In this document: positions 38,106 through 60,044 of the stretch, one piece after another | How the letters are laid out: each line of letters opens with the position of its first letter | Position numbering within the stretch: the first letter of the stretch is position 1 | NCBI GenBank assembly: GCA_000004695.1 | Contig: CM000154.2 | Coordinates: 4,320,001 to 4,384,000 of the forward strand | Direction: 5' to 3' | From: Dictyostelium discoideum | Lineage: Eukaryota | DNA length: 64,000 nt | Translations under genes and position numbers: made by a program | The notes under the pieces: model-generated | What the model saw: only the letters and a program-made list of their open reading frames with translations | What the model was told of the DNA's origin: nothing | The model's database searches: none

Positions 38106-40111
38106 ATGGATAATAATAATAATCCAAATAATAATAATCCAAATAATAATAATAATAATAATAATAATGATTATAATAAATGTCATTATCATCCGACTAA
38201 TGAAATAAATTTAATTTGTTTAGAAGCAGAGTGTAAATTAATGCCATGTTGTGTAGCTTGTATGTCAATTAGTGGGAAACATCATAGACATAGTTTTGAT
38301 TTAGTTAATAATTGTATTTCAAAAATTATTGATAATTTTAAAAAAATATATCCAAATATTTCAAAAAGAATTAATGATTATAAAGAATTATCAGAAAAAT
38401 CAAATTCGATTCATTCAAATTCTAAATTAGATTTTTATAAAAATATTGCTCTTAATGATAAAGTTTTTGCAAATTTAATTAATACTTTAAGTTCAATTCA
38501 AAGAAATATAAAAAATGAATTACAAACAAATCAAGATAAAAATTATGAACTAAATTCAAATGAATCTTTACTAATAACTAATAATAGTCAAATACTTTCA
38601 AATATTTTAAATAATGTCTCAATTGATCATTTGGATGATTCAATTAATAATGATAATAATGATAATATTAATTTAGTTAAATATTATCAACAATCTTTAG
38701 AAGTTTTAAATGATGAAATCATTGAAATTGATTATCAAAATTCTTTACTAACTTTCGATCTTCAACTAATTGAAGAATTAAAAGAAAATTTTAAAAAAAT
38801 TTATTCAATTAATCAATCAGATAATATTAATATTGAAGATGAAGAAGAAGAAGAGGATGAAAAATTTAAGATTGGAATTGATGAAAATGGCAATGGGTTT
38901 GTAAAGAGTATGTATGGTGTGTGTAATTTTAAAGAGAAGGGGGTGGATGATGATGATTATTAATATGAATTTTTTTTTATTTTTTATTATTTTAAAATTT
39001 AGATGAAAATAAAAAGTATTATATTTATTCAGAGAATAGTGAACAAGAAGATAAAGATTCAGTTGCATTTGGAGAAGATTGTGGTAATTTATTAAACATT
39101 AGATCAAATAGAGTATTGAAGAATGTAATGTTGTTAGATGGATTTAAAGAGAGTTTAGGAGTTGGTGTATTACCAGATAGTATTGAATATTTGGAGATAT
39201 GTGATATTAAAACACCTTTGGTGGTTGGATCAATACCATCAAGTGTAAGAACATTGGTATTAAATGATGGATTTAGTCAACCATTAGAACCTGGTATTAT
39301 ACCATCAAGTGTAAAAAGTTTAGATTTACATAATATTAAAAATCGATTAAATGTTGGTTCAATTCCAAGATCAGTTGAAAATTTGGTTTTAAATAATGGA
39401 TTTAATCAACCACTTTTAGTTGATGTAGTATCGTTAATATCAGATGGTGTAAAATTTTTAACATTACATAAAATTAAAAGCCAATTAAAGGTTGGCTCAA
39501 TTCCAAAAACAGTAAAGAAATTAAGTATTGGTGATGGATTTTCACAATATTTGGAAAGTGGAATTGTTCCAAATGGTGTAATTACATTATATATTAATAA
39601 TATTAAACAACAGTTACAAATTGGATCAATTCCAACTTCTGTAAAATTTGCAACTTTTGGTGAAGGATTTAGTCAATTGCTTTCACCTGGCATTATTCCA
39701 AAGGGTGTAATGATGTTGTTTTTCTATAACATTAAATGTCCATTGGTTATTGGTTCAATTCCAATTTCAGTTACATGGCTAACTTTTTATAATGGTTTCA
39801 ATCACTCAATATCACCTGGTATAATCAGTAAAGGTGTGGAAAGATTATTATTACATGATATTAAACAACCATTAGAAATGGGTTCAATACCAACAACAGT
39901 AACTCACATCGTACTTGAAGATGGATTCAAACAAGCACTAACACCAGGAATCATTCCAAATTCAATAAAAGAATTAACTTTAAAAAATGTAAATCTTCAA
40001 TTAGTTGAAGGTTCAATACCAAGACAAATTCCAAGAATTATTTTAAATAATTTTAATGAATCATTAGAAAATTGTAATTTAGATCAATCCGTAGAAATAA
40101 AAATAGAGTAG
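38106..40111 (+). CDS. B-box zinc finger + coiled-coil + FNIP-repeat protein, array copy 1 (intact, ~626 aa): join(38106..38907,39033..40111)
   Basis: Exon 1 has poly-N, then the B-box [37 protein letters not shown], a helical region and an acidic run, and ends ...[15 protein letters not shown]. The intron is GTATGT...TTATTCAG (phase 1). Exon 2 has 13 or more ~22-aa FNIP repeats (GSIP.SV..L.L.DGFNQ.L.PG.IP..V). The splice position matches the other copies by homology. Confidence 0.65.
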
Positions 40112-40446
40112 GGTTTATTATTATTATTATTATTATTATTATTATTATTATTATTATTATTATGATTTAATAAAAATTAAATTTTAAAAAAAAAAAAAAA
40201 AAAAATTCCTTTTTAAAAATAAAATAAATAAAATTATTAAATCGATGTGCAATTTTTTTTTTTTTTTTTTTTTTTAAAATTTTAAGTTTATTAAATCATG
40301 ATTGTTTTTTTTTTTAACCACCCACACCACAAACCATCAACAAAAACACTATTTCCATTTTTTTTTTTTTTTAATTTTTTTTTTTTAATCAAATTTTTTT
40401 TTTTTTTTTTTTTTTTTTTTAATCAATAACAAATAATATATTAAAA

Positions 40447-41181
40447 ATGAATAAAGATAATAACAATAACAAATGTTCATTTCATCCAAATAAAAATTTA
40501 GAACTTTTATGTTTTAATTGTAAATTTATTCCATGTTGTATGCACTGTATTTCTCAACATGGTGAACACCATGGTCATAAAACAAATTGTATAGATTCAA
40601 TTGAAACATCAAATATTCTCAAAATGATGAATTTATTTAAAAATGATATTATTCCAAAATTAAAAGAAATAGTTGAAAATGATAAACAAATAATCAATAA
40701 ATCTGAAAATATTTATAATGAAATTAATCAACAATATGAAAATAATAAAATTTTAGTAACAAACGAATTTAAAAAGTTTCATACATTAATTCAAATTAAT
40801 CAATTAGATATTGAAAATCAATTAAGAACAACATTTGATGAAAATACAATAATATATACTATTATTAATTCATCAATCAATAATAATAATAATTATAATA
40901 TTAATGATGATAATAATTATGGTATTAATATAGAATCAATAGGTAATAAATTAGATAATCTCAATGATACTCACTTACAATATTGTAATGAAAATCAAAT
41001 TTATAACTGGCTTGAGAATCAAGATATTTATCAATTATTTAAAAAATATCAACAATCAACCTTAATAGTTAATAATAAAAATAATATTGAAAATTTAAAT
41101 AAATTAAAAGAATATAATAATCAATCAATAGTATTTAAAATAATGAATGAAATTAAAAATAATTTAAAATTAATTTATTAA
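40447..41181 (+). CDS. B-box/coiled-coil protein, exon-1-only member of the array (244 aa; truncated copy 2)
   Basis: N-terminal B-box [37 protein letters not shown]. It is collinear with exon 1 of the intact copies up to ...NNLKLIY and then hits TAA where the others continue (EFDNINN...KFIKS + intron). No FNIP exon follows; the coding relic follows instead. It is either a stand-alone short protein or a pseudogene. Confidence 0.4.
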   Translation: MNKDNNNNKCSFHPNKNLELLCFNCKFIPCCMHCISQHGEHHGHKTNCIDSIETSNILKMMNLFKNDIIPKLKEIVENDKQIINKSENIYNEINQQYENNKILVTNEFKKFHTLIQINQLDIENQLRTTFDENTIIYTIINSSINNNNNYNINDDNNYGINIESIGNKLDNLNDTHLQYCNENQIYNWLENQDIYQLFKKYQQSTLIVNNKNNIENLNKLKEYNNQSIVFKIMNEIKNNLKLIY

Positions 41182-57665: not shown

Positions 57666-58103
57666 TAATAATAATAAATATGTCTATATCCATTCTCAAA
57701 TATTAAAATTTACAAAGAATTAAAAAAAAGAAAAAGGAAAGGAAGAAGGAGAAAATGATGAGTAGTAGAATATTTGTAAATAATAAAGGATCAAAAACAA
57801 AAAATAAATTCCATCAATTTTATCCTTAATTATTATTATATTTTTAAATTTTTTTTTTTTTTTTTTATTGAAATTATTTTTTAAATATAATCAATTTTAT
57901 ATTTTTTTTTAATTAAAATAAAAGCTAGATATTTTTTTTTAATTAAAATAAAAGCTAGATATTTTTTTTTTTTTTTTTTTTTAAATTTTTTTTTTTTTTT
58001 TTTTTTTTTTCACTCCAAATCAAAAAGTTTTGTTTAATTTTATTTTTAGTTTTTCAGATAAAAAAAAAAAAAACATAAATACTTTAATAATTCTTTTTTT
58101 AAT

Positions 58104-60044
58104 ATGATTGAAAATAAAATAGAACAGAACTGTGCACTCCACACAAATAAAAATTTAGAATTTTTATGTTTAGATTGTAAATTAATACCATGTTGTACAT
58201 TATGTATTTCTAGAGGAGGTGAACATCATCGTCATGGAATTGATTCATTAGAATCAATACAAACATCTTCAATTCTTTCAATGATGAATAGTTTTAAAGA
58301 TGTTTATCCAAAAGTAATTGAAAGAATAGAAAATGATCAACAGATATTAAAAGATTCTGATGAAATTTTCAATGAAATTCAATCACAATATAATAAAAAT
58401 AAAATCACACTAAACCAAGAATTTAAAAAAATTCATAACATACTTTCAATACTTGAATTGGATATTGAAAGACAATTAACTACAGATTTCGAAATAAATA
58501 CATTAATAAATACAACTATAACCTCTTCAATAAATAATGATATTGACAATTATAATAAAAATAAAAATAATAATTCAATCACAGATATATTAAATATTTC
58601 TATAAAAAATATACAACAATATAATGATGATGATTACTATAAAATAGATTCAAATTCAATCGAATTAATAAAACAATACCAACAATCATTACTATTATTA
58701 AATAATAACAATAATATTGATAATTTAAATAAATTAAAAGAATATAATAATCAAACCATTAAATTCGATAACCAAATAATTAATGATATTAGAAGTAATT
58801 TAAAATTAATCTATTCTTTTGAAAATAATAATAATAATAATAATAATAATAATAATAATAATAATAATAATAATAATAATAATAATAATAATAATAATAA
58901 TAATAATAATAAAAAAACTGAAAAATTAAATATTGAAATTGATGAAAATAATTTTAAATTTATAAAGAGTATGTTGTATAAATAAATAAATAGATAAATA
59001 TATATATATAAATAAATAAATAAATATTAACAATATTGATATATTATTATAAAAATAGAACAAAATAAAAAATATTATATTTATTCAGAGAATAATGAAT
59101 TTCCAAAAAATGAAGAAAGAATTGCATTTGGAGAAGGTTGTGGTAGTTTATTAAAAGTTAATTGGAATAAGAATTTAAAGAATGTAATGTTATTAGATGG
59201 ATTTGAAGAAAGTTTAGAACCAGGTATATTACCAGATGGTATTGTACATTTAGAGATATTTGATATTAAAACAGAATTAGCAGTTGGATCAATACCATCA
59301 ACAGTTACAAGTTTAACATTTAATGATGGATTTAATCAATCAATTGAAGTTGGTATTATTCCATCAAGTGTTATTTATTTAGATTTACATGATATTAAAC
59401 AACCATTAAAGATTGGTTCAATCCCACAATCAGTACAAGATTTGAAACTTTGCAATGGATTCTCTCAACCATTAGAACCAGGTATTATTACAAATAAAAT
59501 TAAAACATTAAGTATTCATGAAATTAAAACTCAATTACAAATAGGATCAATTCCAAATAGCGTCACTCATATGGTATTTTACGATGGCTTTAACCAATTA
59601 CTTTCAGCAGGTATTATACCAGAAGGTGTTTCATGGTTATTCTTTTTTAATATAAAAATCCCATTAGTTGTTGGTTCAATTCCTCAATCAATTTATTATT
59701 TAGTTTTCAGTGATGGTTTCAATCAAACAATATCACCAGGTATAATTACTAATGGTGTGGAAATTTTATGTTTACGTGATATTAAACAACCATTAGAAGT
59801 AAATTCAATACCAAAATCTGTAACCAATCTACTTATTGATAGTGGTTTCCAACAACCATTAACACCAGGAATCATTCCAAATTCAATAAAAGAATTAGCA
59901 TTAGGAAATATAAAAACTCAATTAGTTGAAGGATCAATTCCAAAGAAAATTCAAAAAATTATTTTAGATAAAAATTTCAACCAATCCTTAGAAATTTGTG
60001 ATTTAGATAAGAGTGTAGAAATAAGAACAAATTATTTAAAGTAA
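58104..60044 (+). CDS. B-box + coiled-coil + FNIP-repeat protein, array copy (intact, ~606 aa): join(58104..58968,59089..60044)
   Basis: ~90% identical to the 55423 copy in exon 1. Same donor (AAG A | GTATGT) and acceptor (TTATTCAG | AGAATAATGAATTTCC) and the same phase. Exon 2 has 12 or more FNIP repeats and ends at the stop at 60044. Confidence 0.65.

Follow-up and report, generated by a model that had tools for sequence, protein, structure and literature searches.

The chtB locus of Dictyostelium discoideum: a tandem family of RING-less B-box/FNIP-repeat genes with intact, decayed and mosaic copies

What kind of gene is chtB, and what surrounds it on the chromosome? It is one of the two characterized facultative cheater genes of a large restriction enzyme-mediated integration (REMI) screen in Dictyostelium discoideum, and previous work has dealt with it as a single FNIP gene. 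We analysed a 64,000-nt stretch of DNA (positions 4,320,001 to 4,384,000 of the forward strand of contig CM000154.2, assembly GCA_000004695.1), referred to below as the window, whose own numbering is used throughout. The locus is part of chromosome 5 of D. discoideum AX4, with ~20% G+C across the window, and holds a tandem cluster of nine related blocks that includes chtB. The genes of the reference genome, the domain combination, and one named and characterized copy are already known; what we did not find in the searchable literature is that chtB sits in an array, has a B-box/helix exon, and is of mosaic origin, and that the gene model DDB_G0290679 is likely a fusion.

The proteins of the array are RING-less and consist of a B-box2, a ~100-residue helix with shorter helices behind it, a poly-asparagine linker, and a C-terminal FNIP solenoid, and the array changes through decay and gene conversion. 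On the account that we favour and consider reasonably probable as a whole, the chtB locus is a tandem family gaining and losing copies from eight ancestral ones, and its products are probable adaptors. The general picture of dictyostelid FNIP genes, which form large and clustered families, is left unaltered by the present results.

chtB within the array

chtB corresponds to DDB_G0290617 on chromosome 5 and was described as having two exons, one short intron, and ‘a FNIP repeat’ (Santorelli et al. 2013, PMC3559258). Its mRNA is low at 0 h and strongly raised during 4–24 h of development. The knockout is a facultative cheater that contributes ~60% of spores in 1:1 chimeras at no detected cost, and it acts by lowering the prespore differentiation of its wild-type partners (PMC3559258). 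The same paper makes no mention of a zinc finger, a B-box/helix exon, paralogues, or a mosaic origin.

Copy 8 of the array (55423–57665) is chtB. All three single guide RNAs (sgRNAs) designed against DDB_G0290617 in a genome-wide library for clustered regularly interspaced short palindromic repeats (CRISPR) editing match exon 1 of copy 8 with zero mismatches, at 55510–55532 and 55758–55777, and the next best target, copy 9, shows 1, 3, and 1 mismatches. Since two of these guides lie on B-box codons, the reference gene model contains the B-box exon. Copy 8, with its 1024-nt and 1142-nt exons and an intron of 77 or 107 nt depending on the acceptor, also fits the published gene figure. The two sgRNAs that are one base off copy 9 (58191–58213) have their mismatch far from the protospacer-adjacent motif (PAM), and guide 3 sees the same AGG PAM at copy 9; judging from these alignments, CRISPR chtB mutants may have been edited in copy 9 too. 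More generally, within an array of this kind, chtB knockouts, probes, and guides can cross-react with paralogues.

The published insertion site points to the same region. Three REMI-seq insertions anchor the chromosome coordinates (4358628 in DDB_G0290679, 4388508 in DDB_G0290623, and 4340497 in DDB_G0290673), as does a fourth, 4386697, between DDB_G0290621 and DDB_G0290623; together with the gene map of a second assembly, GCA_054883475.1, they fix the offset to ~430 nt either side. The chtB insertion, 4377789, thereby maps to 57424–58279, an interval into which the stop codon of copy 8 (57665) falls. The only correctly spaced pair of GATC sites is 38625 and 57789, 19,164 nt apart against 19,161 nt expected, and the discrepancy equals the distance from the first to the last base of one GATC site. 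One point weighs against this assignment: the best-fitting GATC lies 124 nt past the stop codon, whereas the paper places the insertion in the open reading frame (ORF). Either loose wording or a different genome version accounts for the mismatch; an alternative GATC, at 57559, is within the ORF. The order of dictyBase numbers alone does not discriminate between copies 8 and 9; the REMI coordinate narrowed the choice and the sgRNAs decided it. We regard the identity with chtB and the anatomy of the array, listed here, as very nearly certain.

38106–40111, plus strand: copy 1, intact, 636 aa (exon 1 38106–38907; intron 38908–39002, 95 nt; exon 2 39003–40111)
40447–41181, plus strand: copy 2, 5′ half of a split copy; exon 1 only, B-box intact, 244-aa ORF equal to KAM9948263.1
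41149–42471, strand not assigned: inserted element with 80-nt terminal inverted repeats (81% complementary) and a transposase remnant on the minus strand
42492–43508, plus strand: copy 3, 3′ half of the split copy (end of exon 1 43095–43209; intron 43210–43302)
43850–43938, plus strand: isolated C-terminal tail fragment (KKIILNDFPEESLKVCKLNKSIEIKIFK followed by a stop) of a family member, read from the sequence and compared with the C-termini
44269–44978, plus strand: copy 4, remnant of exon 2 truncated at its 5′ end; some five FNIP units, carrying internal stops and two frameshifts
45656–47557, plus strand: copy 5, pseudogene with several frameshifts; 1-nt deletion at 45781 within the B-box and 4-nt deletion at 46696
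48520–50357, plus strand: copy 6, pseudogene; B-box intact, several exon-1 frameshifts/deletions; exon 2 lacks 1 nt at 49708
50850–53203, plus strand: copy 7, intact, 757 aa (exon 1 50850–51951; intron 51952–52031, 80 nt; exon 2 52032–53203)
53583–53751, minus strand: inverted fragment of ~170 nt from a copy 3′ end and its flank, 83.5% identical to 57627–57801
55388–56800, plus strand: gene-conversion patch in copy 8, 90–99% identical to copy 9
55423–57665, plus strand: copy 8, chtB (DDB_G0290617), intact, 721 aa (exon 1 55423–56446; intron 56447–56523, 77 nt; exon 2 56524–57665)
57789–57792, strand not assigned: GATC giving the best fit to the chtB REMI insertion; it lies shortly after an AATAAA, in conserved DNA flanking copy 8 on the 3′ side
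58104–60044, plus strand: copy 9, intact, 616 aa, 12 FNIP units (exon 1 58104–58968; intron 58969–59058, 90 nt; exon 2 59059–60044)

chtB is itself a mosaic. Copies 8 and 9 share 96% of their nucleotides over the first 400 nt, a figure that also describes exon 1, and their identity stays at 90–99% to about codon 85 of exon 2, after which it falls to 55–75% (75% over the last 600 nt of exon 2). Past this point, copy 8 is 85–92% identical to copy 7, with the remainder of exon 2 resembling copy 5 as well; on the other side of the patch, the likeness to copies 5 and 7 extends over the promoter, as far as ~35 nt short of the ATG. Copy 8 is thus a gene of the copy-7 type into which gene conversion has brought ~1.4 kb from the copy-9 lineage, and this patch spans the B-box/helix exon and the first four FNIP units. 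A preliminary description of this DNA had taken the ~90% identity of the copies at 55423 and 58104 as a sign of ongoing duplication. A fresh duplication is disfavoured because the high identity is limited to the patch, and conversion explains the observation better.

The two ends of the genes sort differently across the array. By nucleotide identity, exon 1 forms three lineages, comprising copy 1, copies 2, 5, 6, and 7, and copies 8 and 9; the FNIP tails fall into copy 1, copy 9, and copies 4, 5, 6, 7, and 8. Exon 1 of copy 1 is diverged, with ~35% identity, yet intact. With a mosaic chtB set among pseudogene relics, this is a convenient locus for the arms-race question on ‘social’ genes.

Decay, gene models and neighbourhood

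The nine head-to-tail, plus-strand blocks of one B-box + FNIP gene design that the preliminary description had recognized are borne out. When the window was searched by tblastn with spliced models, family matches were confined to 38106–60044 and lay on the plus strand throughout. The four copies listed there as intact (38106, 50850, 55423, 58104) do encode uninterrupted two-exon products, of 636, 757, 721, and 616 aa, and these reading frames of 616–757 codons have remained open despite the low G+C content. The five listed as degenerate (40447, 42492, 44269, 45656, 48520) are all decayed, but those at 40447 and 42492 are one split copy. Measured in copy-7 reference coordinates, block 40447 stops at residue 323 and block 42492 restarts at ~340; between them lie the inserted element (41149–42471) and ~620 nt of other DNA. 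In the homologous unit of GCA_054859385.1, an assembly ~10% diverged here, the halves are contiguous and the inserted element is absent. Because the two blocks abut and are contiguous in another strain, the ancestral copies number eight, not nine.

The ORF of copy 2 stops just where the inserted element starts. The transposase of this element is a frameshifted and decayed DDE enzyme of the PIF/Harbinger type with a ‘GFPGSVHD’ motif, and it scores 24.1 bits with DDE_Tnp_4 against a cut-off of 24.8. Copy 3 keeps the first 1.5 FNIP units after its intron and then meets a stop at 43508; its 5′ part is foreign, made up of an unrelated ORF (42492–42791) and lysine/glutamate-rich sequence. In copy 5, the splice donor is displaced by 4 nt and some repeats are missing.

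Could the decayed copies be products of misassembly? The second assembly, GCA_054883475.1, which covers 26410–64000 of the window, differs from it across the array by homopolymer lengths and two single-nucleotide polymorphisms only, all intergenic, and has the same coding sequence. Its frameshifts, inserted element, and long poly-asparagine tracts are identical to those of the window, which rules out an assembly artefact: the lesions are real frameshifts, as first described, rather than assembly collapses. The array products annotated in GCA_054883475.1 measure 636, 244, 162, 203, 524, 458, 757, 721, and 616 aa, and the four large ones equal the models of the intact copies.

We also compared the locus with GCA_054859385.1 and GCA_054859355.1, both labelled D. 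discoideum and ~10% diverged here, as far as the contig end or a 10-kb flank. Copy 1 has an intact orthologue in each of them (712 and 671 aa) and is the only collinear copy, the sequence to its right differing from the AX4 array. In GCA_054859385.1, the copy-1 orthologue is followed by a truncated copy-2/3 unit and then, 2.4 kb short of the flank's end, by unrelated DNA and a Tgr-type gene (Ig_TgrO1/TIG) ~4 kb beyond that orthologue, while the contig of GCA_054859355.1 ends ~2.7 kb past it. These two assemblies, over stretches that close at a contig end or the 10-kb flank, hint at lineage-specific array content. About 180 kb from the orthologous locus, GCA_054859385.1 carries a second family cluster on both strands, whose identity to the copies of the window is 80–85%; the family is thus present as several clusters on this chromosome.

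A few further features of the array concern its non-coding and low-complexity DNA. The inverted fragment at 53583–53751 sits within the 2.2-kb spacer separating copies 7 and 8. Poly-asparagine (AAT) tracts occur in exon 1 (55835–56036 and 51310–51531) and amount to ~66 residues in copy 8 and almost none in copy 9. A C/A-rich, CCCACACAC-like motif lies within A+T-rich spacer 30–120 nt before the ATG of copies 1, 2, 5, 6, and 7 (38070–38095, 40315–40340, 45608–45618, 48480–48495, and 50785–50805, respectively) and is lacking before copies 8 (chtB) and 9; it is a putative promoter element. Downstream, a flank of the form GGAGAAAAT...TTTGTAAATAATAAAGGATCAAAA, with AATAAA and GATC, is kept after copies 4, 5, and 8 (44980–45010, 47640–47710, and 57700–57800), and its conservation means that the duplicated unit takes in the 3′ untranslated region.

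The splice sites needed partial revision. The conserved phase-1 intron proposed initially is right in its donor and its phase, and its length is probably 77–95 nt rather than 105–125 nt. The donor reads AAAGA^GTA[AT]GT (the caret marks the splice point) at 38908, 49285, 51952, 56447, and 58969, with an ATGA^GTAAGT variant at 43210, and phase 1 is given by the length of exon 1 in each of copies 1, 7, 8, and 9 (802, 1102, 1024, and 865 nt). Two in-frame acceptors lie 30 nt apart: a distal CAG, which would yield introns of 100–125 nt, and an upstream TAG, which would yield 77–95 nt. The proximal TAG is used in the AX4 model of copy 1 and matches all four intact-copy product lengths annotated in GCA_054883475.1. 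It is present in all seven intron-bearing copies, and the CAG is mutated to CAA in two of the seven. On this comparison, the TAG acceptor is probably the one in use, and the distal CAG is judged less likely. With the TAG, the protein gains ten residues (K-Y-Y-I-Y-S-E-N), which in the prediction make up the first capping strand of the solenoid.

The AX4 model DDB_G0290679 (815 aa; 38106–41320), which appears in lists of developmentally regulated genes, joins copy 1 to exon 1 of copy 2. Its predicted intron at ~40079–40458 removes the last codons of copy 1, the stop, and the intergenic DNA, and its final 15 residues derive from an arm of the inserted element. Where AX4 has this model, GCA_054883475.1 annotates two separate genes (636 and 244 aa). 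The reference model is likely wrong, with two copies fused.

The placement on chromosome 5 is anchored by the adjoining genes. The ORF at 36438–37592 is identical to AX4 DDB_G0290605, a haemolysin-III family protein; the AX4 protein DDB_G0290679 matches the window at 99–100% over 38106–40983 (copies 1 and 2); and the accession numbers of the neighbours follow the order of the chromosome (DDB_G0290601, 0290603, 0290605, 0290679). Other ORFs of the window lie outside the array. Two adjacent ones on the plus strand, 27032–29692 (886 aa) and 30088–32619 (843 aa), represent a second, unrelated tandem duplication with ~88% nucleotide identity and no Pfam match for either. DDB_G0290603 (32727–34592, minus strand) has four near-identical tandem SnoaL-like domains with threonine/proline/alanine-rich linkers between them. 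The ORF at 19503–19997, where a REMI-seq coordinate places DDB_G0290673, encodes a B-box-like or other treble-clef zinc finger (zf-B_box 21 bits, under the Pfam cut-off).

Protein architecture and what it may serve

Of the two domains proposed for the family, profile searches recover FNIP by a wide margin and the B-box marginally. The FNIP hidden Markov model (HMM; PF05725) scores exon 2 of copies 1, 7, 8, and 9 at 200–222 bits against a cut-off of 21, copy 1 marking the lower end. Each intact copy has 12–14 FNIP units, in which LxFxDGFNQxLxPGIIPxGV alternates with LxxxxIKxPLxVGSIPxSV. For zf-B_box (PF00643), with its cut-off of 24.1, copies 7, 8, and 9 lie just above it at 24.6–25.4 bits, and copies 2 and 1 stay below, at 21.1 and 15.8. 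With E values up to 0.1 accepted, the B-box, which begins at residue 10–26, is detected in 20 of 22 family members, the best at 6.9e-9. An alignment of 17 family members shows no variation in its eight zinc ligands, C-x2-H-x8-C-x2-C-x5-C-x2-C-x6-H-x2-H, and the general pattern C-x2-H-x7-9-C-x2-C-x4-5-C-x2-C-x5-7-H-x2-H is complete in copies 2, 6, 7, 8, and 9; copy 5 has lost the histidines through its frameshift. The preliminary description needs correcting for copy 1, whose B-box departs from the C-x2-C of the other copies and has C-x4-C by a two-residue insertion in the second ligand pair.

We modelled exon 1 and exon 2 separately as AlphaFold monomers. Exon 2 is predicted as a solenoid, as anticipated, with a predicted local distance difference test (pLDDT) value of 93.4, a predicted template modelling (pTM) score of 0.90, and 16 short strands, one per 21–22 residues. 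A Foldseek search with this model returned CroV588 (E 7e-13), CroV539 (3e-5), and then the repeats of TLR and NLR proteins; in the family profile search, CroV588 was found at E 1e-93. In the exon-1 model, the B-box occupies residues 10–50 and is followed by a single long helix (54–150, pLDDT 80–92), shorter helices of low confidence after residue 150, and a disordered poly-asparagine tail. A profile of the first ~150 residues, compared with the PDB, matched TRIM3 best (E 5e-5, positions 6–133). The other best specific matches were TRIM5, TRIM28, MID1/2, and TRIM63/54, with TRIM3, TRIM5, and TRIM28 at E 5e-5 to 2e-3, and the alignments span ~130–140 residues, reaching into the TRIM coiled coil. 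A TRIM-like design had been suggested from the outset, and the B-box2/helix/FNIP layout is upheld by profile and model. The proteins are nevertheless not TRIMs, because the RING finger, the defining feature of that family, is absent: no exon 1 contains a RING or U-box, a Pfam scan of 22 members lists no RING family, and the DNA upstream of the copies is A+T-rich spacer with no further exon-like reading frame. The same scan (E up to 0.1) lists no DUF4559, the domain of the B-box/FNIP protein AreA; a PF14388 match on one homologue, considered as an AreA-type domain, was rejected, as this family is DUF4419.

It is the overlooked B-box/helix exon that suggests N-terminal self-association coupled to partner capture by the FNIP solenoid. 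The array proteins would, on this proposal, probably be cytosolic adaptors. The B-box/helix module would drive self-association, as in TRIM proteins, and the concave face of the solenoid would capture a protein partner, after the example of AreA and Atg101; through this, ChtB might adjust a step in developmental signalling or protein turnover on which the balance of spore to stalk depends. This adaptor mechanism, drawn by analogy, is a tentative proposal, and we hold it with less confidence than the account of the family itself.

Several points tell against the favoured account. The B-box HMM scores are marginal, with copies 1 and 2 under the cut-off, and the exon-1 model is moderately confident (mean pLDDT 63, pTM 0.29). 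Foldseek ranked TRIM5 B-box2/coiled-coil chains first for that model, at non-significant E values above 1. Self-association, partner binding, and pathway are extrapolated; documented expression is limited to chtB among the copies, plus DDB_G0290679 in developmental lists. The likeness to AreA is one of architecture only. Finally, the pairwise ratio of nonsynonymous to synonymous substitution rates (dN/dS), 0.43–1.0 among four paralogues with dS near saturation for the older pairs, is high and also compatible with weak constraint.

This last ratio is informative when the canonical x positions of LxxLxLxx, on the concave face of the repeat, are considered apart from the scaffold positions. dN/dS is then 0.7–1.3 at concave positions, which hold most of the differences between paralogues, and 0.35–0.57 in the scaffold. 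Such a split shows that the fold is constrained, and suggests a likely binding face that is free to vary or diversifying; it does not prove positive selection. It is also what would be expected at a fast-evolving recognition locus, at which intracellular receptors have concave faces under positive selection from social conflict or from microbes or viruses, and at which copy turnover and domain-swapping conversion act as the adaptive engine, as in TRIM5/TRIM22 or NLR clusters. The copies are indeed gained, lost, and converted, one member, chtB, has a social phenotype, and the repeats of TLR and NLR proteins are the best structural neighbours after the CroV proteins; moreover, copy 1 alone is collinear in the two ~10% diverged assemblies, one of which has a Tgr-type gene nearby. 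However, dN/dS never clearly exceeds 1 in this set of four paralogues, whose older pairs approach saturation of dS, variation at exposed repeat positions arises in any leucine-rich-repeat family even when selection is absent, the ligands are hypothetical, and the strain comparison, which ends at a contig end or a 10-kb flank, gives no more than a hint of copy-number variation. We consider a recognition locus unlikely, and slightly more unlikely the fuller version, in which chtB belongs to a diversifying receptor-like locus whose content varies between natural lineages through social conflict or pathogens. If true, it would link a cheating phenotype that can be measured to a protist counterpart of the clusters formed by TRIM5 or NLR genes.

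The same numbers can be read with no adaptive engine at all. If the array were mostly neutral duplication debris, chtB and perhaps copy 1 would be functional, the other intact copies would be redundant young duplicates heading for decay, and the array structure would carry no adaptive meaning; half of the units are already pseudogenes, the paralogue dN/dS reaches 1.0 from 0.43, poly-asparagine tract lengths vary widely among copies, and the chtB knockout has no detectable laboratory cost. Yet four long reading frames are open in very A+T-rich DNA, zinc ligands and repeat scaffold are conserved, and the diverged copy 1 is intact here and in its 712- and 671-aa orthologues, so that we rate this reading as rather improbable. 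Far more remote is the proposal that these are true TRIM-type E3 ubiquitin ligases whose FNIP array selects substrates. The B-box2 plus coiled-coil module does match TRIM3, TRIM5, and TRIM28, but there is no RING or U-box, the B-box starts 10–25 residues from the first methionine with no RING family in 22 members, and the upstream spacer offers no exon-like reading frame. A tandem family of RING-less adaptors remains the reading that we prefer.

Comparison with known systems

The gene of the chtB study (PMC3559258) is copy 8 itself, to which the array described here adds eight neighbouring paralogous units. Similar in design is the characterized protein AreA (DDB_G0279871), which has a B-box and FNIP repeats, binds to Atg101, and holds autophagic flux in check (PMC4554924), and for which HHpred likewise pointed to TRIM B-boxes (PMC4554924). 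AreA comes from the same species and, like the array proteins, joins FNIP repeats to a B-box at the N-terminus; it differs in having DUF4559 between the two and in being encoded at another locus.

With TRIM/RBCC proteins, including RING-less members and clusters of the TRIM5/22 type, the array proteins share a B-box2 followed by a long helix and a variable C-terminal binding domain. The TRIM5/22-type clusters are also tandem, with copies gained and lost, as in the array. The C-terminal domain is SPRY, NHL, or similar in TRIM/RBCC proteins, in contrast to the FNIP leucine-rich repeat of the array proteins, which have no RING and whose coiled-coil dimerization is hypothetical. For D. discoideum, no TRIM other than a TRIM37 orthologue has been reported.

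FNIP repeats belong to the leucine-rich-repeat class and form solenoids with a variable concave edge (PMC9525666). CroV588 and CroV539 (PDB 6NYR and 7ZAL; PMC9525666) are the best matches in both sequence and fold and are built from the same 21–22-residue units with a GF-N-Q ... IP motif. Both are repeat-only proteins, and CroV588 is a closed ring of 25 units, whereas the array proteins, chtB among them, have an alternating A/B super-repeat of 43 residues, 12–14 units, and an N-terminal B-box/helix module.

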